Source: a phage
Length of the DNA: 64,000 nt
Direction: 5' to 3' (one strand)
Assembly: GCA_012690745.1 (NCBI GenBank)
Contig: GCA_012690745.1_4086.1
A program made the position numbers and the translations under genes. Shown piece after piece: positions 2,984 through 48,235 of the stretch. Below the pieces are notes generated by a model that saw only the letters and a program-made list of their open reading frames with translations, made no database searches and was not told the origin of the DNA. Within the stretch, counting starts at the first letter, position 1. The number at the start of each line of letters is the position of its first letter.

Positions 2984-5900
2984 TTACTTAACTAATAATA
3001 TATTTTTAATATCATTACCACTAACTTGTAGACTATCAGTGTATACTGAAAGATCTATAGTGTAACTATTTTGTGTGTAACGTTTTAACATATCATAATT
3101 ACCTAAATTAATTCCATTGAAAGAATATGTGGTATTAAGTTTAAAATCATGTTCTGCACTATACATTACACCACGGAGTAAATTATTTGCATTTCTAACT
3201 TCAACTTTTTCATATCCAATCGATATAATATCATTCATGTTCGCGGCTGAACCGGATAAAACATTATTTCTAATACTATAAGGACTTATTGATTTAGGTT
3301 GAGAAACATAGGTTGTATTTTCTTCACTAATGGTTGTGATGTTAGTAACAGTACCACCAACAACACCGATATACATACCGTCAACCATTGGGAATCCATA
3401 AACCCATATCCCTTCATTATTTCTAAACGGTTGAATAACACTTGAATCATATTCGATAACGTTGATTTCTAAACTATCAGTCATTTTAGTTCTTGCCAAT
3501 TCACTAAGAACTCCCGCACCCGTAATTGGTAAGTTATAACCGTTATCGATAGTAATTCCATCAACATCAAATATTTCATTGGAGATTATCCAAACGTCAA
3601 CGTCATCTGGTGTTATTCCGTCATTGTACTTACCACCATTTAAAGTAATATCGTAGAAAACATCATAATTAATTACATCAATGGTGTAATTTCTATTTTG
3701 TTCATACAATTTAATACCATTCTTGACAAATTCAGGGTCAGCAAATGTTCTAACACGAACAATGTTCAATGCTAGAGGCTGTACTGGCTCATTTTGTTGT
3801 GCAAGAGTGATGTTATCATAACGGAGAACTGCACCAGTACTCTCATCAATCAATTCAATCGTTTCCTTACCTGTATTTCTTACAGTGAATAGGATCGGAG
3901 TTGTATTGTTTTTGATGTTAGATACACGCAAGATTGTTTCCCATGTGTGATTTTGATATCTCACAAAATCTTCACCATCAGGAGTGAAAATCATCACCTT
4001 ATCACCATCAGATAGGTCATTGTCAACTATTTCTGCTTCAGTTAAGCTATTAATAGATCTCACACGATAGAAATATTTTTCATCAAACTTCGATGTTGTT
4101 TTATTAATATCATTTTCAATCTTAGCATATGAAGGAATACTTACAATTGCTTCTGTATGTTTATATGGATTGATAATTGCCATACCTTCAGTTTGATATC
4201 TGCTGTTATCACGTAATTGTACAAGAGATACATTGTCAAACCCATATCCATCAACTGTAAATCTAATTTGTCCAACATCACGCCCAGAAGGGTTTATGTC
4301 AGATATATCCACAATATAAGGATCAACTTCATCATCTTTAACTTCCCATTTTATTGAAGAAGTTTGAGATTCCAATGCTAGGTTATCAAATGCATTCATA
4401 TCATTGAAGTACTTAGCTTCAGTAATACTATCAAGTATATATTGATAATCAGAATACATTGGATTATTTTGATCTAGTGGTAAATCATCAAGATTTATTT
4501 CAGCTAGTTCAACCATTTCACCATTTGTGATAAAATAATCTTCCATGAAATCATCAATACTTTGTTCATCAGGTATACTTTGATATACACCGTTAACATT
4601 TAAGTAAACATATTTTCGTGGAATCATTGTAATTGCATAGATATCAATTGGGGTCTTACTAAGAATCTCTTCAGCTTTTTCGTACTTATCAGTAGCGTCT
4701 TTGTCGAATAACCCTCTCATACCTGCTAATACGTGAATAGCATCAGTATAGAAACGGGTATCACCACCTACTTCATCATAACGATAAACATATACACCAT
4801 ACTCAACTTCAAGTTTAACTTTTACTTCATAGTCTGATGCGTCAGGATTTTTATCTTTAATTAATGAAATGTATTTTTGATACAATTCACTGCTTATTTC
4901 AAAATATCCATAGTTATAATCATTACTAGAAGAAAAGCCTAATGGAAGTCTAGTACTAGGATTGTCATTATAAGTAAGTCCACTAAATCCACATCCAACT
5001 TCATCGTGAATTTTCTCATCACTTATATCTTTATAAAGTTTCAAACGGTTTGCCAATGTGTTATACTGAACATATTGTCTAAGGTCAGTAAACATATCGT
5101 TATGCGTTGATTCTTTATAAACACGTTCCAATGTAGCAGTGAATTCATCAGTTGCTTCTAAATCTTCCGCATGGTCTTTATACCACTGGTTAACGCCATA
5201 TGCTGTTCCTAGTGTTACATCCAATTCTGGATAGTAGATTTGCATTTGATAAGCAATAAGAAGATCGAAAGTTTCTTCACTATATTCTGGGAAAGAATAT
5301 ATATAACGTTGTAATTCATAGTTACTAACAGCATCCTTTTCATTGGATTGATATTTGTTATTAACACTTACTAATTCATTTATGCTTGCCAAATCTTCAT
5401 TTGGTTTACACTGAATATTATCATAATGCATAATAATATCAATTTCTTGGAATCTTCTATTTGGTGTAACGAAATCACTTGGTAGTGAACCTACCTGTTC
5501 CCATTTTTGGGTAATTTCATTAAATTGAGCGTACTCATAATCCCAAATATCTTTTTCAGTTTTGATCCAAGAACCGTCAACGAAAATATATCCATTAGGA
5601 TCTAAATCATTACATAGACCTTTTATTAAATCATCATCAGATGTCTTTTGCTCTATTTGTGAACGAATTTTAGTTCTATAAGGTTTAACTTCTTCAAAAT
5701 ATTCAACAATTTGATTAATCAAATTATCGTTTGAATAGTTTTGAACTAATGATTGTTCCAAACCAACAATATAGATATATGATGTTTTAAATACCCAATC
5801 CACAACACTTTGTTCAACATGTACATATTTGACCATATCAAAAACAATTTCGCTTTGATGTAAATCGAAAGAATTTTTGAGTAAAGCTAGTGCTTTACGA

Positions 5901-8900
5901 ACGTTGATTTCACGATTGCTTAGTGAACCATTATCATTATGAACACTATAATCTGCGTAAAGCATATCATTGAGTTCAACTGTACTGTTTTCACGACCAA
6001 TCGCTTTCCAATAAATTGAATCGCGTGATTGTGATTTAATATACAATGTCCAAATGTTTTCACTATCGGTAACTCTGATAATATCGCCAACTTGGTAGTT
6101 TTTAGTATTAGCATCTTCTAAGCTTGACTCTTGAGTATAAGTCGTGTTACTATCATATCCAACATCATACCAATCAGCATATGACCAGTACTGAGTCATG
6201 TCTAATGAGGTTCCTAGTGATTCAACATAATCAGATTGTTTAATCATTTTATGTTGTCCCTCACCTTTGTTTTCTAACGTTATAGTAACAACACTACCCG
6301 CGTTTGCTGGACTATTCATTAACTGAATATATCCATTTTCGTCGAAGTGAATAAAATAAACAGCACTAGAAGTTAATGGATTTGGTAGATATCCACTAGT
6401 ACTTAAAATAACAGCGTCATTTTCTTTAAATTTATCACTTTCAACTGCAATAACTAATTCATTATTGTAAGACAACACACGGAAAGAAACTTCATTAGGG
6501 TTAACTTCAGTGGTTTTAACATTAAACACATCTTCCATAACAACACTATTAGTGGTTATGTTTTGTGACCTATAATAATTATTAGCACTTTCTACAAAGT
6601 TTCTACGAGCTTCTATAACATTTTGGAACCAAGTTTTGTTTGATCCTAAACCGTTATCAACATCTGGATATAATAAATTAATCACAGAACCTGATTCAGT
6701 TGTTTCTTGACCAATTAGTGAGTTCCACATTGAATCCCAAATTAGTGGGTTAAAGTTATAGCTGTCACCTTCTTTACATAGTTGATACTGGTCATGTTTA
6801 ACAACTTCAGTACTATCCATGTAATAAGAAACAGTTAAAATACTGGTATCATCATTCACTTTAAATTGCATATTACTAAGAATAAACGAGTTTTCATTTA
6901 TTGGAGCGAACCAAGGAATGTTTAGCTGTGTTGGATCTTTAATAATACGAGCAATGTCAGTACATGATTTCGTTCTGGTATGTAGTGGTGGTACATAAAT
7001 TGTATCACGTACCCAGAAATAGTATTTTGTTACATAACTATCAGTTGAACTATCATATTCCAAAAATGTACTATAATTATCTTCAAGTGCAGTTCCACTT
7101 GGTAGATACATAGTATTATTTTTGTTTTTCTTAGCAACATCTTTACAGTATTTGTCCCAGTTATATGGCTCAACTGGTGAACAAACCCACTCTAACACAT
7201 CAATGGTACTATGTGGTAACAAACGTCCCCAGTTGTAACGTTTGTATTCATTGGTTGCATCAATATCAACATTACCGTCTGCGTCATAAATTGCACGAGT
7301 ATAATCCAAATAAAATGCAGTGCTAGTGTTCCACCATACTTGACCAACTTTATCAGCACCCCAAGCCTGGATTAACTCTCCATTACTATTATACTGTGCA
7401 GGATCAACTGGTGAAGTATATGTTACGTTTTGCATAGCCGCACCTGGAATAACACCATTAATTGGGTCATAAACGTTTAGATATAGCTCAGTAATGTTAG
7501 TACGTTCATCATATGTCGTTGGACGATCAAATAAAGTACTTTGTGGTGCTTTAAAACTATATTTCTTGTCAATGTAAGCTTGACGATCATCAGTACTGGC
7601 AAAACGTGATACATAACGATACAAACGTGGACGTGTATCTGGATCAGTAAATTCAATATCAATAGAAGTGTCAAATGGAACTACCATAACTTTAGGATCA
7701 GAACCAGCAGTATAATATTGACTTTCTACTGTTAAAGTATCTGGCATAAAGTTAGTTTCATCAACAAAATAATAATAATCACCATCTTCAAGTGGTACAT
7801 TATCAGTTAAAGTTACTTTACAAAATTGTTCAGCATACACATCGGTATTTTCAATAGGTGTTATAGAAACCATTTGTACATTAGTATCAACCAATTCAAA
7901 AATGTTCCACAAACCATTACCGTCTTTAAACATCCACACAGATTCAGGATTTTCACCTTTACCATTAGTATAAGTTATGCGGTCATTATATGCAGTACTG
8001 AAATCTTTTGTTGTGTACGATACTTCATCCAATGTTACTGGACCAATATCTGGAAGTTGGATGTTTTCACTTCTTCCACTACGCATTGGGAATGAGAACT
8101 TACCATTTGGACGTGTAATCCAACGAGGATCTTTACCTTGCTCACCGAAGTATACAATATGATTACCATTACCATTTGAAGTTGCATTTACATCAAAAGA
8201 AACCATTTGAGGTTGTTGTTTAAATTGGTCATTGATTAGTTTAAATTGAAGGTTTTTCTTACCATCAATATTACCATATGTACCAATTTTAAATGCCCAT
8301 TCTTGTAATGCTTTATATTCATCAGTGTCATATGATTTAGAAACACGAAGTACACGTTCTAAAACTTGGTTAGTACCTTTATCGTGAATGAATCCTTTAT
8401 AGAAATCAACACGACTAACATCACTACTAATCATACGCTGTAGATAATCACGAGATTGATAACCAATCAAATGGTTTGACAACTCTTGTAATTGTACATC
8501 ACTTACTGGAGTTTCACTATCATAATAATGTTGGAAATCCGACACTAATTTTTCAAATGATGGTAGTGTTCCAGCTTCCAAGATAATAAATCCAGGAGCT
8601 TGTAGGCGACCAGTCCATGAACCAGTAATATATCCATACATTTTAATTAGTTCTTGAATAGAACCATATGTTGGCTGATAAATGTAATCACCAAAAATAG
8701 TTTTATCATCAAAAATAACAGCATGTTCATATGAACACAAACTTAAACGAATCAATGCAATGCGTTTATTAGATTCTAAAGTTCTAACAGTGAAGATATT
8801 TCCAATACGAGAAGTTTCAATTTCATATTGGCGAATACCTTGGTTATTATCATCAAGTAATGACCATACACCACCATTATTTTGCGTAATAGATTGTACT

Positions 8901-11900
8901 GAACCAAAGTCTGCCCCAAATTTAGCGTTTGCAGCACTTGGGGTACAAGAAATAAATTCACCAGTTACTAGAGAATTCTGACTCCAGATCACGAAATCTT
9001 TAGCAATAGTGTTCCAATCTTGTTGAGCACCACTATCATTTACATCTTCAAAAATCCAACCATGTTCTTTAAGATATTCACCATATCCACAAATAAAAGT
9101 ATAAACTTCTTGGTAACTATTGAAAACTTTACCATATTCAATTGAAGCTTCAGACTTCCATTCATTATAATGAACAACATTACGGTTTTCCAATTTAAGA
9201 GTTACTTTTCTACCATTTTTTACTGGAAGTTTATATTTAAATTTAGCACCAACTAGATCATATCCATCAATCTGATATGCACTACCATTCCAAGTAATTT
9301 TGATCGCACTCATTTGCTCATCACGGATATTATTAGAACGAACAAGACCAATGGTTTGGTTTTCTTGTGAAATAAGACCGAAAGATTTAGCATTGAATGT
9401 TAGCTGATCTGCTTTAGTAAATCCTCCAATTTTATGACCAACATTTATATAAGAAGAACGAACTACATCCCCATACTTGGTGGTAATATTTTTATTTTGA
9501 TACATCAAATGGTCACTTACAAACATTTGATAACCAATTGTTCTTGTGCTATTTTCACCATGAACTACTGTATTTTTATCAAAATTAATACGCTTACGTG
9601 TATCACCATAAAGGAATTGTGAACCATCAGTGAATACTTCTTTTAAGTTATCGTTGCGGGTATCCCAGAAATAGTTAGCAAATTGTGCTGGTTTAGCTTT
9701 ATACAAAAGCATCATTTGGTCATATGCAAACAATGTAGTGTTCATGTATGTAAATTCCATGTCACCCATATCACCATATGTCCAAGGTTCTGCTCTATGA
9801 TTTAAAGATCCAGACACTAAACCTAAAATTTCAGGTGCAATATATTCAACCACACAAATATCAATACCAGAAGATGTTTTATTTCCAGTTTTTGTAATTT
9901 TGAATGGCTGTACACCAAATCTTTTATATTTGTCATATTGACCACGACGATCACCAAATAAAATAGTTCCAGTACTGCTATCTCCAATAGTTCCGTCAAT
10001 ATCCCAAAGACCACTAGGAACTAAATCACCTTGCTCATTCATAACAAGTGCTTCATATACATATACAACATCACTATCACGTTCACCAACTTGAACAGCC
10101 GTTGGTTCGTATTCTTGGTTCCACCAAGTTGGACGTTGTGTAAAGCCAAACATTTCCCACGGATGGGTAGCTGGGCGATATGTACCATATTGGTCAGTGT
10201 AAATGGCACGCCATGAACCACGTGCAGGAATTTCAGTACTTTGACCATTAACTACATAATAAGTGCCAGTATAGTTCCAAGTTCTCCAATTGTTAGGATC
10301 ATAATCATGTGTACTATTACTGATACCATTAGTTGCGGTGAAGTTAATGTATCCACGTAGTAATAATGTTTGTTTCTCTTCAGCACTATATTCAGTTTTA
10401 GTGAAATATGGTGTAGGGAAAAGGTCATCACTATTCAATACTGGTACGTAATCAACATCTTTGAATTTATTATCAATACTATTAAAAATTCTATTTTCTA
10501 ATTCATATACAACATCATCCATTTTATCAACACCATTGATAACACGGTATGCTTTGGAAATAATACCAGTATGACTGATGTTATAACAGCTTGGTTTACT
10601 ACCAGCAGTGAGGAATGTCGCTTTTTCTGGTACATATGCTTGAAGAATACCTAAGAACTGTGGTGTTGGTGGTATAAATGCACGAATGAATCCAGAAGTA
10701 CTTCCAACATTATCATAATAGAATGGGAATGAACTATCACGTCCCATATTAATAGTAGTTAAAATTGCATCAACAATGTTTGCAGCACTATTTTGTAAAA
10801 AGTCTGATGGATTTTCATCATACATACGAAGCATTTGTGTATTAAATTTATTAATGAATCTAAAATATTCAGATTGCATAAACATAGTTGCTTCAAACAA
10901 ATCAATATCTTCATTTGCAGTATGTGCCATCAATGGAAGCATAGATGCTTCATTTTGGATAATTTTAGTACCTACGCCATTATTAACCAATCCTTTAGCC
11001 AAACGTTCTTCATAGTCATTGAAATCATCAGAAGAACCACGTGTAATGTTCTTTTGAATAATATCCTGAAAATGTAAAGTGTAGTCACCTTGGTTAATGT
11101 ATATAATATTAGAATTATATGGGTTATTTTGTAGGTTGATTGGAACTTCATATGCACCTAATTCTTTATTAGGAGTTACAGTACTGCTATAAGTTCTAAT
11201 TTGAATAACAGAATCTTCATCCAATTCTACAGTACTATCTAGAGTGATGCTTTGTACTTGACCTTTTGAAACATTTTTGGTATATTTGGACACATCAACA
11301 CCATCAACCACAACTTCAATAATATCAGAATCATTATCTAAAACTTTTTGTGCCAATTCGAATGTATGGTCATATTTTACAATCTGAACACCATCACCAG
11401 TAATTGGATGCCAATCTAGATAAGTTTCACGGTCAGCTTTATAGTACTGATATGTTCTATCAACTTCAATAACATATGCATACATACCATCAACTGGTTC
11501 TTTAAAAACTTCCATATCATAAACAGTACTGAATACACGATACATATCAGTACGTTGGACTTGTGGAGTTTGTTTTACAAATTGTTTAGAGTACTCTTCT
11601 GAACGAACCCAATCGGTTTGAAGATTCATTTCATTATTTTCATCAATAATGTTATAATAGTATAAACCATCAATTTCAACTTCTTTTCCAAGATGGTCAT
11701 AGGTATAACGTTGGGATTGTAAAAAGTTTTCATAAATGTAATAATTATAATCACCAAGTTCAATGTTATATCCATATACACTATCAGTTGCATAGTTGTA
11801 ATTTATTTTAAAACCAAACAACTCTGAACCTTTAAAGTTACTTGATGGATATGTAGTACTGTTGTCAAGTTTGATACCATTACGATCATAAAGTTGGAAT

Positions 11901-12955
11901 TTAGGGAATACGTTAACACTAGTTTTTGATTGTGCACGAACCCACAAAGATCCATTCCAGTACATAGAACTATTACCATACTCATTACCTTTAGTGATTA
12001 GAACAACATCACCATCTTGAGGTTCACCACTTGGGCGTGATTCGGTTTCTTCTTCTGGATCTAGTGCTAAACCATAAACACGAGTACCATCTTGCATTTT
12101 TTTCACATATACATTATAAATTCTATTGTTTTCACCATTGTTACCAATACTGGTGAATAGAATACGCATTCCATCTTGCGGAATAATACCATCAATACGT
12201 ATACCACTATTAATATCTTTTTGAACGATATCTTCAGGTTTAATAATATCAGAGAACAGATCAACAGTTCCACGGAATTTTGTACCGTAGTTAATTAGCT
12301 CAATATTTTTATTATATTCAATAATTGGTGCACGTGCACGAATAAAACGTGAATCTTGCATTAATTCTTCAGTTAATATTGAGCCATCTTCTAATGTTTC
12401 ACCTAAAGTATACCAAAAGTTTTGTAGTGACCATGTATTACCATTAAGTGCTCCACGTTCCATTACAATGTAATCAGGTGAAGTAATATTATAAGAGTTT
12501 TTAGTATCCCAAAGATATGAGCTAAAATTGTTCATTTTATTTGGGTTAATAGCTGGAGTCCATGCATAAAACTTACCGTTGAACAAACGGCTTTCATTAT
12601 CGGTTAGTGCTCCATAATGATTCATGTATCCAACTAGATCATCATAAAATTGAATTGAACGAATTGTCGAATCATCATTTTTTGAGACGTAAGCAGTGGA
12701 CAACTGATAAAGTTGACGTGCTACAGTACTTTCATGTAAGAAGATATTACCAGCAGCGGCAGGAGAACCCATATCACCAATATAGCCGTCAACTAATTCG
12801 TTTTCAGCCGGATTAAACCATTGTTGAATAACATCATCACTGACTTTTTGAATATCTTCTAAGCCTTGCATCCACTCAGGCAATCTTTTAATAAAAAGCT
12901 TCTTCTGTACTGCTTCAGCCATCTGTGTAGGTTGAAACTTAAAATTATTAGTCAT
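2984..12955 (-). CDS. Giant virion structural protein (~3,320 aa), probably baseplate-wedge/tail-fiber (gp7 position)
   Basis: Uninterrupted 10 kb ORF immediately downstream of the gp6-like gene. The internal ATG at 12955 is preceded by GGAG with a 7-nt spacer; the track ORF start is 12985. Function inferred from position only. Confidence 0.6.
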   Translation of the reverse strand: MTNNFKFQPTQMAEAVQKKLFIKRLPEWMQGLEDIQKVSDDVIQQWFNPAENELVDGYIGDMGSPAAAGNIFLHESTVARQLYQLSTAYVSKNDDSTIRSIQFYDDLVGYMNHYGALTDNESRLFNGKFYAWTPAINPNKMNNFSSYLWDTKNSYNITSPDYIVMERGALNGNTWSLQNFWYTLGETLEDGSILTEELMQDSRFIRARAPIIEYNKNIELINYGTKFRGTVDLFSDIIKPEDIVQKDINSGIRIDGIIPQDGMRILFTSIGNNGENNRIYNVYVKKMQDGTRVYGLALDPEEETESRPSGEPQDGDVVLITKGNEYGNSSMYWNGSLWVRAQSKTSVNVFPKFQLYDRNGIKLDNSTTYPSSNFKGSELFGFKINYNYATDSVYGYNIELGDYNYYIYENFLQSQRYTYDHLGKEVEIDGLYYYNIIDENNEMNLQTDWVRSEEYSKQFVKQTPQVQRTDMYRVFSTVYDMEVFKEPVDGMYAYVIEVDRTYQYYKADRETYLDWHPITGDGVQIVKYDHTFELAQKVLDNDSDIIEVVVDGVDVSKYTKNVSKGQVQSITLDSTVELDEDSVIQIRTYSSTVTPNKELGAYEVPINLQNNPYNSNIIYINQGDYTLHFQDIIQKNITRGSSDDFNDYEERLAKGLVNNGVGTKIIQNEASMLPLMAHTANEDIDLFEATMFMQSEYFRFINKFNTQMLRMYDENPSDFLQNSAANIVDAILTTINMGRDSSFPFYYDNVGSTSGFIRAFIPPTPQFLGILQAYVPEKATFLTAGSKPSCYNISHTGIISKAYRVINGVDKMDDVVYELENRIFNSIDNKFKDVDYVPVLNSDDLFPTPYFTKTEYSAEEKQTLLLRGYINFTATNGISNSTHDYDPNNWRTWNYTGTYYVVNGQSTEIPARGSWRAIYTDQYGTYRPATHPWEMFGFTQRPTWWNQEYEPTAVQVGERDSDVVYVYEALVMNEQGDLVPSGLWDIDGTIGDSSTGTILFGDRRGQYDKYKRFGVQPFKITKTGNKTSSGIDICVVEYIAPEILGLVSGSLNHRAEPWTYGDMGDMEFTYMNTTLFAYDQMMLLYKAKPAQFANYFWDTRNDNLKEVFTDGSQFLYGDTRKRINFDKNTVVHGENSTRTIGYQMFVSDHLMYQNKNITTKYGDVVRSSYINVGHKIGGFTKADQLTFNAKSFGLISQENQTIGLVRSNNIRDEQMSAIKITWNGSAYQIDGYDLVGAKFKYKLPVKNGRKVTLKLENRNVVHYNEWKSEASIEYGKVFNSYQEVYTFICGYGEYLKEHGWIFEDVNDSGAQQDWNTIAKDFVIWSQNSLVTGEFISCTPSAANAKFGADFGSVQSITQNNGGVWSLLDDNNQGIRQYEIETSRIGNIFTVRTLESNKRIALIRLSLCSYEHAVIFDDKTIFGDYIYQPTYGSIQELIKMYGYITGSWTGRLQAPGFIILEAGTLPSFEKLVSDFQHYYDSETPVSDVQLQELSNHLIGYQSRDYLQRMISSDVSRVDFYKGFIHDKGTNQVLERVLRVSKSYDTDEYKALQEWAFKIGTYGNIDGKKNLQFKLINDQFKQQPQMVSFDVNATSNGNGNHIVYFGEQGKDPRWITRPNGKFSFPMRSGRSENIQLPDIGPVTLDEVSYTTKDFSTAYNDRITYTNGKGENPESVWMFKDGNGLWNIFELVDTNVQMVSITPIENTDVYAEQFCKVTLTDNVPLEDGDYYYFVDETNFMPDTLTVESQYYTAGSDPKVMVVPFDTSIDIEFTDPDTRPRLYRYVSRFASTDDRQAYIDKKYSFKAPQSTLFDRPTTYDERTNITELYLNVYDPINGVIPGAAMQNVTYTSPVDPAQYNSNGELIQAWGADKVGQVWWNTSTAFYLDYTRAIYDADGNVDIDATNEYKRYNWGRLLPHSTIDVLEWVCSPVEPYNWDKYCKDVAKKNKNNTMYLPSGTALEDNYSTFLEYDSSTDSYVTKYYFWVRDTIYVPPLHTRTKSCTDIARIIKDPTQLNIPWFAPINENSFILSNMQFKVNDDTSILTVSYYMDSTEVVKHDQYQLCKEGDSYNFNPLIWDSMWNSLIGQETTESGSVINLLYPDVDNGLGSNKTWFQNVIEARRNFVESANNYYRSQNITTNSVVMEDVFNVKTTEVNPNEVSFRVLSYNNELVIAVESDKFKENDAVILSTSGYLPNPLTSSAVYFIHFDENGYIQLMNSPANAGSVVTITLENKGEGQHKMIKQSDYVESLGTSLDMTQYWSYADWYDVGYDSNTTYTQESSLEDANTKNYQVGDIIRVTDSENIWTLYIKSQSRDSIYWKAIGRENSTVELNDMLYADYSVHNDNGSLSNREINVRKALALLKNSFDLHQSEIVFDMVKYVHVEQSVVDWVFKTSYIYIVGLEQSLVQNYSNDNLINQIVEYFEEVKPYRTKIRSQIEQKTSDDDLIKGLCNDLDPNGYIFVDGSWIKTEKDIWDYEYAQFNEITQKWEQVGSLPSDFVTPNRRFQEIDIIMHYDNIQCKPNEDLASINELVSVNNKYQSNEKDAVSNYELQRYIYSFPEYSEETFDLLIAYQMQIYYPELDVTLGTAYGVNQWYKDHAEDLEATDEFTATLERVYKESTHNDMFTDLRQYVQYNTLANRLKLYKDISDEKIHDEVGCGFSGLTYNDNPSTRLPLGFSSSNDYNYGYFEISSELYQKYISLIKDKNPDASDYEVKVKLEVEYGVYVYRYDEVGGDTRFYTDAIHVLAGMRGLFDKDATDKYEKAEEILSKTPIDIYAITMIPRKYVYLNVNGVYQSIPDEQSIDDFMEDYFITNGEMVELAEINLDDLPLDQNNPMYSDYQYILDSITEAKYFNDMNAFDNLALESQTSSIKWEVKDDEVDPYIVDISDINPSGRDVGQIRFTVDGYGFDNVSLVQLRDNSRYQTEGMAIINPYKHTEAIVSIPSYAKIENDINKTTSKFDEKYFYRVRSINSLTEAEIVDNDLSDGDKVMIFTPDGEDFVRYQNHTWETILRVSNIKNNTTPILFTVRNTGKETIELIDESTGAVLRYDNITLAQQNEPVQPLALNIVRVRTFADPEFVKNGIKLYEQNRNYTIDVINYDVFYDITLNGGKYNDGITPDDVDVWIISNEIFDVDGITIDNGYNLPITGAGVLSELARTKMTDSLEINVIEYDSSVIQPFRNNEGIWVYGFPMVDGMYIGVVGGTVTNITTISEENTTYVSQPKSISPYSIRNNVLSGSAANMNDIISIGYEKVEVRNANNLLRGVMYSAEHDFKLNTTYSFNGINLGNYDMLKRYTQNSYTIDLSVYTDSLQVSGNDIKNILLVK

Positions 12956-13003
12956 TTTTGGACTCCATATAATTCGTTCATTCATTTGATTTATTTATGA
13001 TAT

Positions 13004-16563: not shown

Positions 16564-16592
16564 AAAAAGAAAAGCACTCCGAAGAGTGCTTT
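16564..16592 (-). terminator. Hairpin with U-tract on the minus strand between the gp25-like and gp6-like genes (partial terminator or attenuator)
   Basis: Stem AAAGCACTC / GAGTGCTTT with a CGAA loop, then a U-rich tract on the minus strand. Confidence 0.4.
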
Positions 16593-16597
16593 TGTAA

Positions 16598-16993
16598 TTA
16601 TAAAGACGATACTGAATATGTTGCCATTCTGTTATTACTTCTTGCATCGAATACAATAGTAAGTTCTTCTAATGTATCCAATACTACGTACTGTAATACA
16701 ATATTCATTTGGTATCCATATTCTATTCTTGAAATTTGCAATTTCTTAAGATTTAAGCGTGGATCTAAGCTAATTATTCTACGGGCATCTGCTTCCAAAA
16801 GGTTGATAGTATTATAACCTTCCAATTCAAACAGCAAATCCCATGCAATAAAACCATAGTCAGCATCAAATGCTCTTTCGCCTTTTTTTGTATTGAAATG
16901 ATTCATTAAATCTTGGCGAACCAATTCACTATCATACAATGTTTCAGTTCTACCCACTACTGGGGTAGAAAAACCTTTAAAAACAACTGCCAT
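16598..16993 (-). CDS. Baseplate wedge protein gp25/gpW-like (131 aa)
   Basis: Size, and position between the lysozyme and gp6-like genes. ERAFDADYG-type motif typical of the gp25/GPW family. Confidence 0.6.
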   Translation of the reverse strand: MAVVFKGFSTPVVGRTETLYDSELVRQDLMNHFNTKKGERAFDADYGFIAWDLLFELEGYNTINLLEADARRIISLDPRLNLKKLQISRIEYGYQMNIVLQYVVLDTLEELTIVFDARSNNRMATYSVSSL

Positions 16994-17008: not shown

Positions 17009-17497
17009 TTATACGGATTCAACAATACGTGCCATCTTTTCCGCTCTTGAAGTGGTTTGTTTATACCATGTACTATCACGCAATTCCTTACCAGCAGTTT
17101 TATAATCAGCCTTACCTAATGCGGTCATTGCTTTTTTAAATTTTAAAACTTTGGTTTTTCCCATCTGGAATACCATCAACCATAATACACGTTGAACCTG
17201 TACAGGTGCGGTCATACCAAATTGTTCATAAATTGATTTTGCATCATTGTACGCAGTTTGAGCATCTTTAAGAAGAAGTTGGTCAGCTTGTGCTTCTGTT
17301 AAACCATTCTTGAAATTTTCACCAGGTAAAACTAGGTGACCATAGCCAATAGTATCAAGACCTAAGCTGTCTTTATATACCCAAAACTTATCATTTTTAA
17401 AATAACCAAGTTTTTTCTGATAAGCAATAGTTCCTTCAAATTCTTTAATTTCCTTAAAAAATTGCTCATCTGTATTTTTAATTTCCCATTTACTCAT
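17009..17497 (-). CDS. T4-type lysozyme (glycoside hydrolase family 24), stand-alone
   Basis: EFEG...KDSLGLDTIGYGHL matches the T4 lysozyme catalytic Glu/Asp/Thr arrangement. Strongly similar to the C-terminal domain of the upstream spike protein. Confidence 0.8.
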   Translation of the reverse strand: MSKWEIKNTDEQFFKEIKEFEGTIAYQKKLGYFKNDKFWVYKDSLGLDTIGYGHLVLPGENFKNGLTEAQADQLLLKDAQTAYNDAKSIYEQFGMTAPVQVQRVLWLMVFQMGKTKVLKFKKAMTALGKADYKTAGKELRDSTWYKQTTSRAEKMARIVESV

Positions 17498-17533
17498 AAA
17501 GATATCCTCGTTTTATTTATAGTACTAAAATAT

Positions 17534-20197
17534 TTATTGACATGCCTCTAAACGACGAGCCATTAACTCAGCACGGCGAGTAGTTTGGCGATACCAAGCT
17601 GAATTACGTATTTGAGCAGCAGCTTGTTTATAATTACCTTTAGCTAATTCAGACAACATAGTTTTAAATTTAAGTACCCCACCTTTACCCATCTGGAATA
17701 CCATTTGGCATAGTACTTGTTGAGCCAAATAAGGTGTTTTCATGTTGTATGAAGCATAAATTGATTTAGCATCATATATAGCTTTACTACTATCACGAAC
17801 TAACATATCGTTGGCTTGCTGTTCAGTTATTCCATCTGAAAAGTTTTCACCACTAATAATTAAGTGACCATAACCAATAGTTGGATACCCACGACTATCC
17901 AAATAACGCCAGAATTTACCATTACGATAATATCCTTTTGCTTGTTGGTATTGTAATGTACCTTCATATTCTTTTAATTCAGAAATAAATTGTGCATCAC
18001 CTGGAACAACTTTCCAATCGATTGCAGTTTTATCAACATTTCCAATATTATAGGTAGGTTGCTCCACCGGAGTTGTTGAAGCTCCACTTCTCTGTGTTCT
18101 TCTCCTACGAGGCACATGACGAGAACCACGTTGAGAATATCCAGTACCTATCGTTTTGATTTTTGTTGTAACTACCAATTCATCACTATCAACTGAAGGT
18201 TGTACAACTGCTTTTGGAGCAGATTGATTAGTTGCTTGACCACCAATTAATGTTTTATTCGCCGCATCAGACCCTGTTCCTGTTTGTGAAGCATAAAATA
18301 ATCCTGGGTCAACAGAACCACTGAATCCAAGAACATTTGCTGATGTAACACGAATTTCAAACTGTATGACACCATTTGCTTTTCCAACAACTTGACCTTT
18401 TTGAACAACATCTTTGTTTAATAAATCAGATTGAATATTATAAAAAATAGATTTATATCCAGACTTATGTTGTATTAAAAGAGCACCATTAGTAATTACT
18501 ACCACACCACCATCTGGTGCAACTACATCACCTTTACATTGTATTTCCCAACCTGAACGGTCTGCCTTTCCTCCACTTTGTGTTGGAACACCTTTCCCCC
18601 AGTAACCATATTGTCGAATAGTACCGCTACATGGCATTAACATATGTAAACCTTCATATGTAATACTATATCCAGTCATCCCAGGATCAGATGTCATCAA
18701 ATCTTGTGATTGAACTTGTTCAGTTTCTGATGTATAGTTAACAAACTGAACAGCTTCAGTGTCTTGTGCTACGGGTAATTCTGGTGATACATCATTTGCT
18801 GGTTGTGGTTGTACTGGTGATTCACTAGAACCACTTCCACCACCTTGTCTTGGTGGTTCAACATAACTACCATGATTTTCAGCGTTAACCCATGCAGCGA
18901 TATCATGAATGTGTTCATTAAGACCAGCAGATGGTGTTCTAAAGTTTGGTGCAGTAAATTCAGCAGTACCGCTATTACCACCACTATTAACTGTTAATGT
19001 TTGACCACCACCACTAATAATTGCTGATGATGATCCAATTAGGTTTGCAGATGTTGCGGCAGAAATAGAAGCATTTGAACCAGCCGTAATATCAGTACTG
19101 CTACCACTTTGCATACGTAATGATGCAGCCGTAACTAAACGAAGGTCTGCCCCAGAATTAACAACAACTTGTCCACCAACTTTTGCATCAAGAGCACCAA
19201 TTAGATCTAATTTAGTATTTGCACCAACTCGTGCATTGAAATCTTGTCCGGTTTCAATATTATATGAACGTCCAGCAGTAATATTAATATCTTGACCAGC
19301 ACGAATATTAATATTCTTATCACAGTGCATGTCAATATCACCTTCACCAGTGAATTTTATACGTGCAGTGCCATCACGGTTAATTAAAAGAACATCACCA
19401 GTAGCTTCTGATAAAAGAAGTTGTGCACCACTACGTGTTTTTATTACGACACCTTCATTTTTACGAGAACCAACACGTGTATCGTTTACTGGGTTATTAA
19501 ATTGTGTATCTTGATATCCATCTGGGTCTTGATCCCACGTTGGTGCTGTTAATTCCTCTTCAGTATATCCATCATCAATAATAAAACTATTACCACGTGG
19601 CGAAGACATACCATATACAGTACTGGTGGTTTGTCGAGTACTACTACGATTCGCCAACCCAGCTTCTTCGTCATATAAAAGGTTTTGCTTTTTAAGACCT
19701 GCGATGATTGGAACGTTAGCATATTTGTCTTGCATATCGGTAGTGATAGTGTTACGATCATAGTCAGTAACAGGAAGTGGCATATCAGTTCCACCATAAT
19801 TACTTACTTCAGTTGCCATACCCGGAACCATAGTATTCATACGCTGGTCATATACACAACCAATCCAATATGCTTGGAATGTACGGGCTTGTGCAAAAAT
19901 TACAACAACTGTACACCCTACGTCTGGTGGTACTGCCCAAAAACCGTATCCTTTTGGATATTGACCATATGCATCAGCACTTGGAATACCTGGTGTTTTA
20001 CCAGCAAAAGGAGACATGTAAGATGCTTCTATCCATGATTCTTTTGAGTTTTTATCACTTTGAGAACCTTGTATCCAAACTTTCAGTTTTCCTGATTTAG
20101 TTGGATCTCTGTTATCCATAACAGTTGCTAACTGCGGATAAGATGGGTCAAAACGACCCAACTGCTGTTGTGCATACTTTTTACTTGTATCTGCCAT
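17534..20197 (-). CDS. Baseplate central spike (gp5-like) with C-terminal T4-lysozyme domain
   Basis: N-terminus ATVMDNRDPTKSGKLKVWIQG resembles the gp5/VgrG OB-fold start. Gly/Ser-rich repetitive middle region. C-terminal ~165 aa (EYEGT...LDSRGYPTIGYGHL) is a GH24 lysozyme domain. Confidence 0.7.
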   Translation of the reverse strand: MADTSKKYAQQQLGRFDPSYPQLATVMDNRDPTKSGKLKVWIQGSQSDKNSKESWIEASYMSPFAGKTPGIPSADAYGQYPKGYGFWAVPPDVGCTVVVIFAQARTFQAYWIGCVYDQRMNTMVPGMATEVSNYGGTDMPLPVTDYDRNTITTDMQDKYANVPIIAGLKKQNLLYDEEAGLANRSSTRQTTSTVYGMSSPRGNSFIIDDGYTEEELTAPTWDQDPDGYQDTQFNNPVNDTRVGSRKNEGVVIKTRSGAQLLLSEATGDVLLINRDGTARIKFTGEGDIDMHCDKNINIRAGQDINITAGRSYNIETGQDFNARVGANTKLDLIGALDAKVGGQVVVNSGADLRLVTAASLRMQSGSSTDITAGSNASISAATSANLIGSSSAIISGGGQTLTVNSGGNSGTAEFTAPNFRTPSAGLNEHIHDIAAWVNAENHGSYVEPPRQGGGSGSSESPVQPQPANDVSPELPVAQDTEAVQFVNYTSETEQVQSQDLMTSDPGMTGYSITYEGLHMLMPCSGTIRQYGYWGKGVPTQSGGKADRSGWEIQCKGDVVAPDGGVVVITNGALLIQHKSGYKSIFYNIQSDLLNKDVVQKGQVVGKANGVIQFEIRVTSANVLGFSGSVDPGLFYASQTGTGSDAANKTLIGGQATNQSAPKAVVQPSVDSDELVVTTKIKTIGTGYSQRGSRHVPRRRRTQRSGASTTPVEQPTYNIGNVDKTAIDWKVVPGDAQFISELKEYEGTLQYQQAKGYYRNGKFWRYLDSRGYPTIGYGHLIISGENFSDGITEQQANDMLVRDSSKAIYDAKSIYASYNMKTPYLAQQVLCQMVFQMGKGGVLKFKTMLSELAKGNYKQAAAQIRNSAWYRQTTRRAELMARRLEACQ

Positions 20198-20210: not shown

Positions 20211-22460
20211 TTAATCAACTATACTATCGTGACGTTTGAGTGCACGAATTACAATTGCAGCTTGAATTTGTTGTGTAAAAGAACCACCTGCACCAAAATC
20301 ATGAACAATTTTATTAACACGATAAATTGTTTGGTTAAATGTGGTTGGTGTATTAATATCCAAAACACCAGTGTTATCATTTATTGATATTACTGGTTGT
20401 AATTTTAGTAATAGATACGCTTCAGATGTTATATAATTTGCTACATGATAATCATCTGGGTTAATTTCCATATCTTCACCATTAATTACTTGTTCTAGAT
20501 ATTGTAAGTAAGAGTAATCACTCCACCCTAACCAGTACGGGTCGCCTACTACACGCATATCGAGTTTACACAAAAAAGGTCTATTGTAATAGTTGTCACG
20601 TATTTTACGTCTATCCATTTCATATGTGCTGCTGTTATCGTTTAACGAAGCGGATAAAGTTGTTTCATTGTTAGTTGCTTCGGTTGGCATTGTGAACACT
20701 TCACCATAACGGTGACCAACACCATCAGTACCGCCATCGTTTTCTTCATAAGTGGTTACATAATCTTCAATATATTGAGGTAAAACATTGACTTGATAGT
20801 TATTATAACGGTCTTGTTCTTCTGCGTTACCAACCTGCATTTGATTTTTTGCTAAAGTTTCAACTTCAGTTAACAATTGTTGTTGGGCTTGTGTTAACAT
20901 CCCTCCTAAATCACGAGTTACACGTAAATCACTTGTTTTTGCCCATGCGTCTGGTATACTATTGTATTGTACACCTTGAATATTGAGTTCTTGGGATGTA
21001 TGTGTACCTGCATGGTTCGCTACATCTTGTATCGGACCAGGGTTACGTGTAGTGGCTACGAAAAATTGCTGATCAAATTTCAAATCCAAATCAAGTATCT
21101 CACTATTAAGCCCACTAAATTGATAATTATAAGTTTTCATGTTTATTTTTGGTTTTTGATCATTAGGATCTACGTATTTTTCTGCGTTCTCAAAAAAGTA
21201 CTCAAATGTGAAATTTTCAGGTTGTAAATCCGATTCATGAACAATATCACCTATTTTAAATCTAACAATATAAAAAATTACTTTATAAACAGAAGTATTA
21301 CGATAATTATCAAAACCAACGTATTGTTTAACTGGTATAATGTTTACAAATTGACGCACACTAGTACTATCATCGGCTTGTACAGTACATGTATCAATAA
21401 CGTCATCAATAATTCGAGATATAGGAGTACTTGGGTTCCATGAAAAGTTTTTAGAACCTTGTGCACCACTTTTAGTTGTTCCGGCCTCTGCCATTTGTTT
21501 AGAATCATAGTTTATAAACAAATCTTGCAAATCAGGTGCTACTTTAAATTCGAAAAATTTACCTTCGGATAATTCACCAAATTTATATCTAAGATAACCA
21601 TATTGTTGGTCAGCCATCTGATTTAATTTATCTTCTAAATCAAAGCAGAAGTCACCAAAGTTTTCAGCAGTACAATTGAATGGTTCTTTTAAGGTCCATT
21701 CAATGTTATCAACTAAAGCTGCTCTATTATGAACTAAGTTCATAGTATACATCATAGTACTACCACTTTGTGAAGCACTTGCAGTAACACTATTAATTTT
21801 AACTGACCAGCGTCTTGTTGTTTCTGGGATAATTTCAGGTATTCCATTTTTATTAAAGCCAATAAACTTTAATTCCAAGATCAATGGCAAGTCCATAAAT
21901 TTATGATATCTAAGTTTGTTACTTAACGAAATTAATTCATCATATAGACTCATACTATTATTTTCAGACATATTAAGTACTGCTGTATTAAAACAATAGT
22001 TTGTTGTCATTCCTGGTGTTGAAGGTCCAGCTTGTGTCATTTGTACACTAGTGATATTATATTTGCCAGTAACACCACTTTCTGATATCACATGTCGTTG
22101 CACTTCTGCATCTGGGTAAAGCCAAAAGTTTTTAAAATCATCTTTATCTAAGGCAAATAAACAAAAGTGCCAAGTTGGGTTATCATATTTCAATAATTTA
22201 TTGTCATACGGTATTACAAACTGACTTAAATCGAGATCTTCATAAACTTGATCAACACTAGCACTTTGTTTTGGTAATGATACTACATTACTTACATTTG
22301 CTTTGTAATTATTTTTTGTAATAGTTTTTACATCATTTTGTAATGTATTTGCTGTAGCTTTCAAACTATCAAGTGCATTAGATGTGGTGGTTTTAGCCTT
22401 ACCAGTAATACTTGTAATATCATTTTGAAAATTATCAACTGTACTTCGTAAATCTGCCAT
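20211..22460 (-). CDS. Hypothetical baseplate/tail protein (749 aa), possibly hub-like
   Basis: Long ORF directly upstream of the spike gene in the same late operon; no recognisable motif. Confidence 0.5.
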   Translation of the reverse strand: MADLRSTVDNFQNDITSITGKAKTTTSNALDSLKATANTLQNDVKTITKNNYKANVSNVVSLPKQSASVDQVYEDLDLSQFVIPYDNKLLKYDNPTWHFCLFALDKDDFKNFWLYPDAEVQRHVISESGVTGKYNITSVQMTQAGPSTPGMTTNYCFNTAVLNMSENNSMSLYDELISLSNKLRYHKFMDLPLILELKFIGFNKNGIPEIIPETTRRWSVKINSVTASASQSGSTMMYTMNLVHNRAALVDNIEWTLKEPFNCTAENFGDFCFDLEDKLNQMADQQYGYLRYKFGELSEGKFFEFKVAPDLQDLFINYDSKQMAEAGTTKSGAQGSKNFSWNPSTPISRIIDDVIDTCTVQADDSTSVRQFVNIIPVKQYVGFDNYRNTSVYKVIFYIVRFKIGDIVHESDLQPENFTFEYFFENAEKYVDPNDQKPKINMKTYNYQFSGLNSEILDLDLKFDQQFFVATTRNPGPIQDVANHAGTHTSQELNIQGVQYNSIPDAWAKTSDLRVTRDLGGMLTQAQQQLLTEVETLAKNQMQVGNAEEQDRYNNYQVNVLPQYIEDYVTTYEENDGGTDGVGHRYGEVFTMPTEATNNETTLSASLNDNSSTYEMDRRKIRDNYYNRPFLCKLDMRVVGDPYWLGWSDYSYLQYLEQVINGEDMEINPDDYHVANYITSEAYLLLKLQPVISINDNTGVLDINTPTTFNQTIYRVNKIVHDFGAGGSFTQQIQAAIVIRALKRHDSIVD

Positions 22461-22471
22461 ACGTTACTCCA

Positions 22472-22786
22472 TTAGCCTATGTTTCGAGTACCATTAAGAT
22501 AATTCTGTACTCTTTGATTTGCTGGTATTCTAATTGTTACTCCACTTTTAAAATTATATATAGGATCTTCTCCTAGTATGTCTGGATTTAACAATGCGAA
22601 AATATAATATAAGCGTTCATTACCATACATTTCGTATGCTAAACGCCAAGGTTGATATTCATATTTCAATGGGATCTCATAAAAATCATCAGTATCAGCC
22701 GGAACAATATCACGTGGTAAAGTATACCCAAGATACCATGTTTGTTTCACCTTAGCGTAAGGTGAGTATTGACTATAGTTGGACAT
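22472..22786 (-). CDS. Hypothetical protein (104 aa) in the baseplate operon
   Basis: ORF tightly packed between structural genes on the same strand. Confidence 0.45.
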   Translation of the reverse strand: MSNYSQYSPYAKVKQTWYLGYTLPRDIVPADTDDFYEIPLKYEYQPWRLAYEMYGNERLYYIFALLNPDILGEDPIYNFKSGVTIRIPANQRVQNYLNGTRNIG

Positions 22787-23517
22787 TAAATGAATCCTCC
22801 TTTACGTAATAGTTCACCACGTTTGAATGCATTGAGGTTGAACGTTTTAGTCATATAATCCGATGTTGGTTGTTCTTCAAGTTGTAACATAACTGAGATT
22901 TTTTGTGGAACCCAAACTTCATCTTGTGGGTTCATATATCCAGTACTTCTAAGTTGTTCGAAGAATTTTCTACTATCCATGTCGGATAAATTAAAAGTAC
23001 TATCGCTACTATTCAACGGAACTTGAATATAAGAAACATCATTTGGGTAAGTAAAATTATAAGATTTTAAAATAACAGGAATATCATTATATGTATAACG
23101 ACCATATCCACTTAGAAGTAAGATTGGTGGTGGTGCACCTGCAATTGCGAGTTCGGGGTTATTAGCCGAAGCAGCTTGTCTACCAAAATCCATCAACGAA
23201 ACAGAACGTATAAAATGAACACATGCCAACGCATACATAGCTTCTGCTGCTGTATTCGCATAAAATTCACCCTGAATCGTGAAAACTGTATTAGTAGTGT
23301 TCTTATAGTTGTTATAGTTACTGTTAGTATGTATAGGGGACTGTGTTTCATACTGAATTGACCTTTGTTCAGTAATTGTTGGTGTTACAGTCCAAACCAA
23401 CCCATTAGTTGGACGCAGAAACGAAAGTAGAGTTGGTTCGGAGCTATCTCCAAAATCACCATATACATAGTTAGCACCTGCGGCTTTAGGTCGTAATCGA
23501 ATTCTACGATCAATCAT
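22786..23517 (-). CDS. Hypothetical virion/baseplate protein (244 aa from ATG 23517)
   Basis: The ATG at 23517 is preceded by GGAG with an 8-nt spacer and a late-promoter octamer; the track ORF extends to 23607 only through a non-ATG start. Confidence 0.5.
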   Translation of the reverse strand: MIDRRIRLRPKAAGANYVYGDFGDSSEPTLLSFLRPTNGLVWTVTPTITEQRSIQYETQSPIHTNSNYNNYKNTTNTVFTIQGEFYANTAAEAMYALACVHFIRSVSLMDFGRQAASANNPELAIAGAPPPILLLSGYGRYTYNDIPVILKSYNFTYPNDVSYIQVPLNSSDSTFNLSDMDSRKFFEQLRSTGYMNPQDEVWVPQKISVMLQLEEQPTSDYMTKTFNLNAFKRGELLRKGGFI

Positions 23518-23552
23518 CTTTTTGATTCTCCATAATAAGGGAACATTTGATG

Positions 23553-23560
23553 TATTTATA
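23553..23560 (-). promoter_or_regulatory. T4-type late promoter (TATAAATA on the minus strand) for the baseplate operon
   Basis: Perfect TATAAATA octamer on the minus strand about 35 nt upstream of ATG 23517. Confidence 0.45.
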
Positions 23561-23648
23561 CGTGGGACAAACTGCTTTTTGGTGCTATAATAACATTGAT
23601 GGTACAAGGATTGTACCTATTGGATTTAAACATGGAGAGTAAAATACA

Positions 23649-24488
23649 ATGACAAATAGACCAAAGCGTAAAAAGTATCTCAATAATGCTGATTTACTTC
23701 GTGAAATACAAAAAAGTAAAATTTCATATTGCTGGTTATTAGACAAATCATATAGTATGTATGATTATATTGTTTTTCATGAGTCAGGAATTACTGCTGA
23801 GTTACTAGAAAAAGCTAAGGCAGCACGAATTAAACGACTGAACAATGAAATGCTTGATAGTATTCGTGAAAAGGAAAATATGAGTGCTAAAAAAGCTAAA
23901 GAATATGCAGATGAACACAATTTAGTTATCACTGACGTTCCAATTGATGAAGTTGTTATTCGTGTTATTACAGATGAACATATTCCACCAGATACTAGAG
24001 TTAACTTTGAACCATTCAAGCATTATATTGTAGATAATGAAGGTATTCTCTATGAAGTTTGTCGTTCTCACTGGAAAGGCGACCTTGAAACTGGTGAATT
24101 CAGTACTGTTCATGGTAAAATTACAAATGAACTTGGGAAGATGTTCATTAAACTTGCAGAGGAAATCTCACACAAATCTAATTACAGAAACTATACATAC
24201 TTAGATGAAATGATGGGTGATGCAAGAATACAATTAGTTAAAAACGCACTTCTCTTTAAAGAGAGCATTCTTTATAAAAAAGATAAACCAGCAGTTCAGC
24301 TAAATCCTTTCTCTTACTATACATCATTCGTAAACAATAGTTTTCGTTCTATATTGAATAGTGAGAAAAATGTTCGAAATATACGTGATGATTTACTTGA
24401 AATGCATGGCTTTACGCCATCACATACACGTCAAATTGAAATTGAATTGAACATGATTGAAAGGAAAAATGAAGATGGCTCTGTTTGA
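23649..24488 (+). CDS. gp55: Late-transcription sigma factor, gp55-like, with an internal insertion
   Basis: N-terminus KKYLNNADLLREIQKSK resembles the T4 gp55 N-terminus. Followed by gp47 and gp46 homologues as in T4 (55-47-46 order). About 100 extra residues relative to T4 gp55 (185 aa, as recalled). Confidence 0.55.
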   Translation: MTNRPKRKKYLNNADLLREIQKSKISYCWLLDKSYSMYDYIVFHESGITAELLEKAKAARIKRLNNEMLDSIREKENMSAKKAKEYADEHNLVITDVPIDEVVIRVITDEHIPPDTRVNFEPFKHYIVDNEGILYEVCRSHWKGDLETGEFSTVHGKITNELGKMFIKLAEEISHKSNYRNYTYLDEMMGDARIQLVKNALLFKESILYKKDKPAVQLNPFSYYTSFVNNSFRSILNSEKNVRNIRDDLLEMHGFTPSHTRQIEIELNMIERKNEDGSV

Positions 24489-31112: not shown

Positions 31113-31120
31113 TATTTATA
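31113..31120 (-). promoter_or_regulatory. T4-type late promoter (TATAAATA on the minus strand)
   Basis: Perfect octamer about 35 nt upstream of ATG 31078. Confidence 0.45.
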
Positions 31121-37070: not shown

Positions 37071-37078
37071 TATAAATA
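37071..37078 (+). promoter_or_regulatory. T4-type late promoter (TATAAATA)
   Basis: Perfect octamer about 48 nt upstream of the scaffold gene ATG; a hairpin ATCTGTA...TACAGAT lies in the leader. Confidence 0.45.
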
Positions 37079-38279: not shown

Positions 38280-38287
38280 TATAAATA
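38280..38287 (+). promoter_or_regulatory. T4-type late promoter (TATAAATA) for the major capsid gene
   Basis: Perfect octamer about 45 nt upstream of ATG 38333; the leader is shared with the acidic-protein gene. Confidence 0.5.
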
Positions 38288-48227: not shown

Positions 48228-48235
48228 TATAAATA
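48228..48235 (+). promoter_or_regulatory. T4-type late promoter (TATAAATA) followed by a leader hairpin
   Basis: Perfect octamer directly after the clamp stop; hairpin GGGGAACA/TGTTCCCC just downstream; drives the Zn-ribbon and GroES-like genes. Confidence 0.4.

Follow-up and report, generated by a model that had tools for sequence, protein, structure and literature searches.

Spike-borne and free T4-type lysozymes encoded by adjacent genes in the baseplate region of a PBECO4-type jumbo coliphage

Central spike proteins of the gp5/VgrG type are recognized by an OB-fold followed by a triple beta-helix. In gp5 of phage T4 the order of the domains is OB-fold, lysozyme and helix, and a paralogous free lysozyme of family GH24 is encoded by gene e at a distant position of the same genome. 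In spikes of the P2 gpV/phi92 gp138 type an OB-fold and an intertwined beta-helix are found, with a conserved HxH motif straight after the helix. In the "evolved" VgrG proteins of type VI secretion systems (T6SS), OB-fold and helix are extended C-terminally by a wall-degrading enzyme. For example, VgrG-3 from V. cholerae carries a peptidoglycan-degrading domain at its C-terminus. Here we analyze a gene pair that shares features with each of these systems. It lies in a stretch of phage DNA of 64,000 nucleotides (nt) (contig GCA_012690745.1_4086.1 of GenBank assembly GCA_012690745.1), which as a whole is called the window in the following. The first gene (17534..20197) encodes a protein of 887 amino acids (aa), the central baseplate spike protein (the spike), and the second (17009..17497) a GH24 lysozyme of 162 aa (the free copy). 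Both open reading frames (ORFs) are on the minus strand, as are all features of the window below for which no other strand is given, and both were found where a preliminary description, made from the letters of the sequence, had placed them. In the spike the lysozyme comes last, after the OB-fold and the helix, and between helix and lysozyme there is an additional domain with the fold of LytM peptidases, predicted to be catalytically dead.

The region of the window is 99.9% identical at the nucleotide level to Escherichia phage PBECO4 and belongs to a PBECO4/121Q-type jumbo coliphage (Asteriusvirus). Other Asteriusvirus jumbo phages (phAPEC6, 121Q, SP27) are 95–99.8% identical to it. The spike and the free lysozyme are a known and already annotated phage gene pair, with published orthologs in RaK2 (gp078 and ORF073), CBB (CBB_240 and CBB_239), phAPEC6 (gp241 and gp242) and UE-S1 (ORF535 and LysUE1). 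It was noted already in 2013 that RaK2 gp078 (886 aa) has "a very unusual domain composition" with a C-terminal lysozyme, and that the phage has three lysozymes with mutually similar domains (PMC3622015). In the 2017 paper on CBB it was described that the architecture differs from that of T4 gp5 and that a T4-type lysozyme is encoded next to it, and confirmed structural proteins were named; a possible central M23 domain (E = 6.5e-4), present also in other Rak2-like homologs, was reported, too (PMC5259590). The preliminary description is thus correct, but the architecture and the neighboring lysozyme had been published before. To this we add, as increments, that the LytM domain is dead, that an HxH motif precedes the C-terminal cargo, that the duplication is old and that the free copy has an internal late promoter which is conserved. 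Domain order, folds, conservation, paralogy, synteny and promoter conservation were computed by us; the presence or absence of proteins in virions and the activity of LysUE1 are taken from the literature; whether metal is bound, how the cargo is arranged in space and what the LytM domain and, in vivo, the free copy do are matters of inference.

The N-terminal half of the spike is that of a gp5/VgrG-type central spike. Pfam finds Phage_base_V (PF04717), the gp5/VgrG-type OB-fold, at aa 23–116 (19850..20131) with 29.8 bits (cutoff 23.8) and DUF2345, the VgrG-type beta-helix, at aa 278–329 with 34.7 bits (cutoff 30.7). OB-fold and helix of T6SS VgrG in the PDB match this half with E = 8e-6, and the OB domain aligns to 9jg8. 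In the full-length AlphaFold model the OB-fold is moderately confident, and the VgrG-like triple beta-helix, about aa 246–422 (18932..19462), has short regular strands and a predicted local distance difference test score (pLDDT) of 75–83. In the same model aa 512–655 and aa 725–887 are confident globular domains, and the linkers between them have low confidence. A Gly/Ser-rich repetitive region ahead of the lysozyme, as the preliminary description had it, is this helix, after which comes a Pro/Gly/Ser-rich linker. The segment between OB-fold and helix (aa 117–245; 19463..19849), which sits where T4 gp5 has its lysozyme, has many invariant residues and a pLDDT mostly below 50, and a family search with it gave no match.

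The C-terminal GH24 (T4-type) lysozyme domain spans aa 725–887 (17537..18025). Pfam Phage_lysozyme (PF00959) covers aa 765–882 with 45.2 bits and is found in the free copy with 37.0 bits (cutoff 22.3). A phmmer search of the PDB with the spike domain retrieves lysozyme domains at 4e-11, including a chain named gp5, and the domain has a pLDDT of 84–92 in the full-length model. Pfam and the model thus place the lysozyme at the extreme C-terminus, after the helix, which is what had been proposed, and a central lysozyme in the T4-specific order can be rejected. The equivalents of the catalytic Glu11, Asp20 and Thr26 of T4 lysozyme, as found by alignment, are E745, D767 and T773 in the spike and E21, D43 and T49 in the free copy. 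Conservation in the spike was counted in 52 sequences, the window protein and 51 of the 86 full-length homologs found, with identities to the window protein from 93% down to 37% and with GAP32 and Erwinia, Yersinia and Xanthomonas jumbo phages among the sources. E745 and D767 are each present in 51 of the 52 and T773 in 40; in the free copies all three residues are kept (23/23).

A possible degenerate peptidase-like segment at about aa 520–640 had been suspected, and indeed there is one. Modeled alone with AlphaFold 2, aa 512–655 (18233..18664) give a pLDDT of 94.2 and a predicted TM-score of 0.89. Foldseek against the PDB returns 55 matches at E ≤ 1e-3 with this model, and all of the 50 matches listed belong to the M23/LytM family, the best being the LytM domain of EnvC (4bh5, 2.1e-6) and DipM (7qrl). 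A profile of the family of this domain finds LasA in the PDB with 1.1e-6 and also SpoIIQ, DipM and zoocin A. Pfam M23 (PF01551) reaches 22.2 bits, which is under the gathering cutoff of 28.7. At the positions of the M23 HxH motif (610/612) and of the catalytic histidine (587/588) none of the 52 homologs has a His, and at the HxxxD positions Arg prevails at 547 (38/52; His in 4) and Ile at 551 (27/52; Asp in 2). An active M23 peptidase is rejected by these counts of zinc-binding and catalytic residues. Together with the modeled fold they argue for a catalytically dead LytM domain, and its conservation down to 36% identity argues for a non-enzymatic function.

An M23 fold in virion-borne phage proteins is a known theme: many of the viral matches to this fold are tape measures, hubs and internal proteins. 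As in tail proteins of the phi29 gp13 type and in M23 tape-measure or hub proteins, a glycosidase and an M23 fold are combined in one virion protein. The M23 domain of phi29 gp13 has been described as an active peptidase, however, whereas the domain in the spike is without any catalytic residue, and this dead active site is the distinctive part. A LytM fold without zinc-binding and catalytic residues, as found here, is what characterizes the degenerate LytM regulators EnvC, NlpD, DipM and SpoIIQ. These are periplasmic regulators (of cell-wall hydrolases in the case of EnvC and DipM) or scaffolds in bacteria, whereas the present domain belongs to a spike in the virion.

Directly after the helix follows an HxH motif, GLNEHIHDIAAWVNAENHG (aa 423–445; 18863..18931), in which H429 and H431 (NEHIHDI) are invariant in all 52 homologs and H442 is present in 46. 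In P2 gpV the HxH motif, formed by H197 and H199 of 211 residues, is an Fe-binding histidine cage, with the Fe octahedrally coordinated by the three HxH copies of the trimer, gpV reaches the periplasm, and the Apex of such spikes is defined by an HxH near the C-terminus (bioRxiv 10.1101/2023.02.25.529910; PMC12407873). The motif of the spike is in the same register as LHTHKH of gpV (H197/H199), and divergent members of the spike family have NHTHPHGD where gpV has HTHKHPGD. Like gpV, the spike has its HxH immediately after the beta-helix; metal binding by it is putative. T4 gp5, in contrast, has been described as lacking an HxH near its C-terminus and as having a separate PAAR tip, gp5.4 (bioRxiv 10.1101/2023.02.25.529910; PMC12407873). 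The HxH region also seemed to match VgrG1 (4uhv), but what it matched is the His-tag of that construct, and the hit was discarded.

The helix and the two globular domains are connected by two linkers of opposite charge. The first (aa 446–511; 18665..18862) is Pro/Gly/Ser-rich and acidic, with an isoelectric point (pI) of 4.05 over aa 433–511 and a pLDDT from below 50 to 65. The second (aa 656–724; 18026..18232) is basic, with a pI of 10.6 and a pLDDT of 35–55, and contains the conserved stretch ELVVTTKIKTIGTGYSQRGSRHVPRRRR. Within this otherwise disordered region, at about aa 668–698 (18110–18200), the pattern ELVV.T.V.SIGS.YSQRGS..VPRR is conserved, with V675, G691 and P696 invariant. The stretch might be where the protein is processed, or might act as a docking strand.

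The two lysozymes are related to each other more closely than to any other lysozyme compared. BLASTP aligns the spike lysozyme (aa 728–885) with the free copy at 83 identities in 158 positions (53%) without gaps (E = 3e-57), and the shared motifs pointed out before, E(Y/F)EGT, TIGYGHL, MVFQMGK, WY(R/K)QTT and AE(L/K)MAR, all lie inside this alignment. The copies are 51–53% identical to each other and about 30% to T4 lysozyme, and the nearest phage lysozymes from outside the family have at most about 38% identity among those sampled. A third lysozyme of the phage is 36% identical to the free copy and 29% to the spike copy. Both copies carry 13 extra residues between the catalytic Glu and Asp and, compared with T4 lysozyme, share a deletion. 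By these comparisons the free copy is to be regarded as a true paralog of the spike domain. In a neighbor-joining tree with bootstrap, made with our own script, both copies group together, apart from T4 lysozyme and from a more distant spike-borne lysozyme (L025). In the core group of the tree a clade of the free copies from different genera has 81% bootstrap, while that of the spike copies is weak (36%), and the internal topologies look broadly congruent. Strict clades of all free and of all spike copies have a bootstrap of about 0 because one very divergent pair (L022) branches basally.

A local duplication, as had been proposed, is thus upheld, with the refinement that it is ancient. At the nucleotide level the copies are 60% identical, and their longest stretch of identity measures 17 nt; these values, together with the free clade that spans genera, point to one ancient tandem duplication without recent gene conversion; a recent duplication or a recent gene conversion is rejected on the same grounds. 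All 22 related loci surveyed in IMG/VR contain both genes, which are adjacent in 21 of them, and in 21 of the 22 the free gene lies between the spike gene and a gp25-like gene, down to a spike identity of 39%. In the remaining locus (L016:9661-11446), on a contig of the size of RaK2, about 1.8 kilobases (kb) are inserted between spike and free lysozyme, with an ATAAATA still present 43 nt upstream of the free copy.

The gap between the two genes is 36 nt long and contains TATAAATA, the consensus of T4 late promoters (17514..17521, 16 nt upstream of the ATG of the free copy), and a GAGGA ribosome-binding site (17505–17509). A second ATAAATA (17531–17537) overlaps the stop codon of the spike gene. 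In the window there are seven copies of TATAAATA, of which six are in the intergenic 6% of the sequence, on the coding strand and upstream of genes (P = 3e-7). Three of the six are on the minus strand (17514–17521, 23553–23560, 31113–31120) and three on the plus strand (37071–37078, 38280–38287, 48228–48235); the distance to the start of the gene downstream is 16–47 nt for five of them and 201 nt for the sixth. The window also has a gene for a gp55-like late sigma factor (23649–24488, given without regard to strand), and ATAAATA has been proposed as late promoter in CBB (PMC5259590). Upstream of the free copy an ATAAATA is found in 13 of 16 distinct related loci, including L016 and the divergent L022, and it usually overlaps the TAA stop codon of the spike gene; it went unseen in the other three because the ORF caller took an upstream start, which displaced the stretch scanned. 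A terminator-like hairpin on the same strand was not found before the end of the gp25-like gene (16598..16993; Pfam GPW_gp25 with 35.1 bits; PHROG 43), which follows directly downstream of the free copy and appears to be in the same transcription unit. This unit of spike, lysozyme and gp25-like gene is closed by a terminator-like hairpin with a 10-bp stem and a T-run (16570..16593). A scan for sigma-70 promoters gave hits at or under the shuffled expectation and was uninformative. The conserved late-promoter motif and the lack of a terminator until after the gp25-like gene indicate that the free lysozyme is expressed late and that it has, within the baseplate unit, a conserved promoter of its own.

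The spike gene itself is part of a baseplate module, as seen from its gp53-, gp25- and gp6-like neighbors (Pfam, PHROG). With these neighbors, a T4-type late promoter, an OB-fold/beta-helix spike with a GH24 domain and a paralogous free GH24 lysozyme in the same genome, the locus resembles that of T4 gp5 and gene e. It differs from T4 in the domain order, in the extra dead LytM domain, in the adjacency of the paralogs, which are distant in T4, and in the low identity to T4 lysozyme.

Which of the two copies is borne by the virion was left undecided in the preliminary description, with virion proteomics named as a check, and published protein lists largely answer it. In the virion proteome of phAPEC6 the spike (gp241) is represented by seven peptides, whereas gp242, the free copy, and gp243 are not in the table (PMC7247149). 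The spike ortholog of CBB was detected in virions by mass spectrometry (MS), and for Rak2-like phages the homolog of the free copy was excluded from the confirmed structural proteins (PMC5259590). LysUE1 from phage UE-S1, which is identical to the free copy in 156 of 162 positions (96%), is muralytic in vitro after purification and lyses cells permeabilized with EDTA; high enzyme concentrations were needed. The third lysozyme (gp293c in phAPEC6; L030:27101-28027) is encoded outside the window and is composed of an N-terminal hydrophobic anchor, LysM and GH24. Its homolog in CBB is the predicted endolysin and is toxic upon expression (PMC5259590). In the papers on PA5oct and Sharanji we found nothing further on the free copy.

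Taken as a whole, these data are probably best explained by a trimeric spike with C-terminal cargo and a free copy that acts as a soluble late muralytic enzyme. The spike would be the central spike of a contractile-tail baseplate, seated on the hub via its OB-fold, with the VgrG-like helix as needle and the HxH motif closing the helix, by analogy with P2 gpV probably as a metal-binding histidine cage. Appended after the helix would be a wall-degrading module, a cargo of about 450 residues consisting of the acidic flexible linker, the dead LytM domain, the basic linker and the intact GH24 domain. Upon contraction of the sheath the spike would enter the periplasm, where three tethered lysozymes would open a local passage for the tube by cutting glycan strands. 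The LytM domain is probably a binding or regulatory module that docks to peptidoglycan or to a protein rather than a peptidase. The free copy would most likely be an accessory enzyme or a holin-dependent endolysin beside the membrane-anchored LysM-GH24 protein.

It should be noted that several points weigh against this reading. The GH24 activity of the spike is a prediction from the sequence, and in 6 of the 52 spike copies T773 is replaced by Asp. The HxH is not near the C-terminus, as in the Apex proper, but is followed by 456 residues, whereas P2 gpV ends 12 residues past its motif, and HxH cages are known also from the middle of fibers (bioRxiv 10.1101/2023.02.25.529910; PMC12407873). Homology to the Apex finds no statistical support: the best PDB match of a profile of this region, to the HxH region of a 207-aa phage "puncture apparatus" protein (E = 0.2), and an hhalign comparison of the spike family with P2 gpV (E = 0.13 over 8 columns) are both not significant, the reason being that the HxH motif is too short. 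The absence of the free copy from virion lists is negative evidence, and MS has also missed low-copy proteins: the gp25-like protein is unlisted in phAPEC6 (PMC7247149), and the spike itself was missed in RaK2 (PMC3622015). The free gene lies in a baseplate operon, flanked by the spike gene and the gp25-like gene, and has no recognizable holin or spanin gene adjoining, although no search aimed at holins was made. Finally, in the work on P2 a wider spike tip lowers infectivity (bioRxiv 10.1101/2023.02.25.529910; PMC12407873), with which a bulky cargo at the tip conflicts; it is thus possible that the cargo is removed by cleavage or lies folded back against the helix.

This last possibility leads to the most serious alternative, to which we would give somewhat less than an even chance, namely that the cargo is proteolytically separated from the helix during assembly, or is folded back such that the spike has its lysozymes at its base, inside the baseplate, and a sharp HxH tip. 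The spike would then be a permuted T4 gp5. There is a precedent in T4, where gp5 is cleaved into gp5* and gp5C. The acidic linker of 66 residues could run back along the helix of about 170 residues, the stretch with invariant residues in the basic linker could serve for processing or docking, and the P2 results imply that the diameter of the tip matters. However, cleavage is putative, a protease site is not recognizable in the spike, and the model of the spike is that of a monomer, which cannot show the arrangement.

For the free copy, too, there are other explanations than that of an accessory or holin-dependent muralytic enzyme. It could be the main endolysin, the membrane-anchored LysM-GH24 protein having another role such as that of a pinholin-like trigger or in wall remodeling during infection. 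The lysis of permeabilized cells by LysUE1, a size and a pI (9.2–9.3) typical of endolysins, the late promoter and the absence from published virion lists would all fit. We nevertheless consider it rather unlikely that the free copy has this role, given that the homolog of the membrane-anchored protein is toxic on expression and has a signal-anchor architecture like that of signal-arrest-release (SAR) endolysins, that LysUE1 had to be used at high concentrations in vitro, and that the neighborhood of the free gene is as described above with respect to holins.

Alternatively, the free copy might not be an endolysin at all but a partner that the spike or baseplate needs in low copy number for its structure or assembly, overlooked by MS as small or low-copy baseplate proteins are in these phages. 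Its gene stays between spike and gp25-like gene in 21 of 22 loci and is no more than 1.8 kb away in the last one, it shares its transcription with baseplate genes, no terminator being found before gp25, and the membrane-anchored protein is already favored as endolysin. This reading is improbable all the same: the free copy is unlisted in phAPEC6 virions and its homolog is excluded from the confirmed structural proteins in the CBB paper, it has its own conserved late promoter, kept in L016 despite the distance of 1.8 kb from the spike, and it behaves, as LysUE1, like a soluble active enzyme. The synteny is weak evidence in this respect because tandem duplicates stay adjacent by default.

Beyond the gene pair, the neighborhood contains some further genes of interest. 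Downstream of the gp25-like gene there is a gp6-like wedge gene, followed directly by an ORF for 3333 aa (2984–12985), the ortholog of phAPEC6 gp245, a protein of 381.9 kDa that was detected in virions with 17 peptides. Upstream of the spike, between it and the gp53-like gene, a virion structural protein of 749 aa is encoded (20211–22460), at the position expected of a gp27-like hub. An assignment of this protein as gp27-like hub is unsupported, as it has neither a Pfam match nor a sequence match in the PDB. The baseplate operon (genes from 23517 down to 16598) is headed by the copy of TATAAATA at 23553..23560, if the gene start is taken from the annotation of phAPEC6 gp238. The ORF at 22786–23607 has a mechanical start at a TTG at 23607 (273 aa), whereas the annotation in phAPEC6 is 243 aa from about 23517. 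Since the promoter motif would lie inside the longer ORF, the shorter gene is favored.

The comparison with evolved VgrGs extends to the wider family. Distant spikes share the N-terminal 40% and diverge at the C-terminus, where there is a short tail of about 100 residues, a GH24 domain by itself (P0095, L025) or a domain of GH19 type (P0110). In distant relatives (P0088, P0090–P0097, P0110, L025:3552-6083) a C-terminal motif like R.PTHEPWPHHENLD is common, and some have an HxH (GHTHK) and EPCPEH. A common chassis thus seems to be fitted with modular cargo at its C-terminus, in analogy to the evolved VgrGs, which likewise have a VgrG-type OB-fold and helix (DUF2345) ahead of the enzyme and differ in their cargo among relatives. 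The spike differs from them in that it is a phage baseplate protein without a fused gp27-like domain and that its HxH suggests a self-capped tip rather than a PAAR cap. Taking the analogy further, the spike might be a phage "evolved VgrG", a self-capped needle closed by the HxH that would carry three flexibly tethered cargo arms into the periplasm, where the dead LytM domain, similar to EnvC, NlpD or DipM, would either gate the GH24 domain of the spike or dock onto host amidases or lytic transglycosylases and switch them on, widening the entry hole. We hold this to be improbable; if true, it would be a virion-delivered hijack of host autolysin control.

The confirmed architecture in itself changes little, the phage being already sequenced and annotated. 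The refinements, however, sharpen the hypotheses on the way in which Rak2-like jumbo phages get through the cell wall and on which of their three lysozymes suits enzybiotic use. And the swapping of C-terminal cargo across the spike superfamily, whose members have no cargo, GH24, a GH19-type domain or LytM together with GH24, has its counterpart in the evolved VgrG effectors of T6SS.

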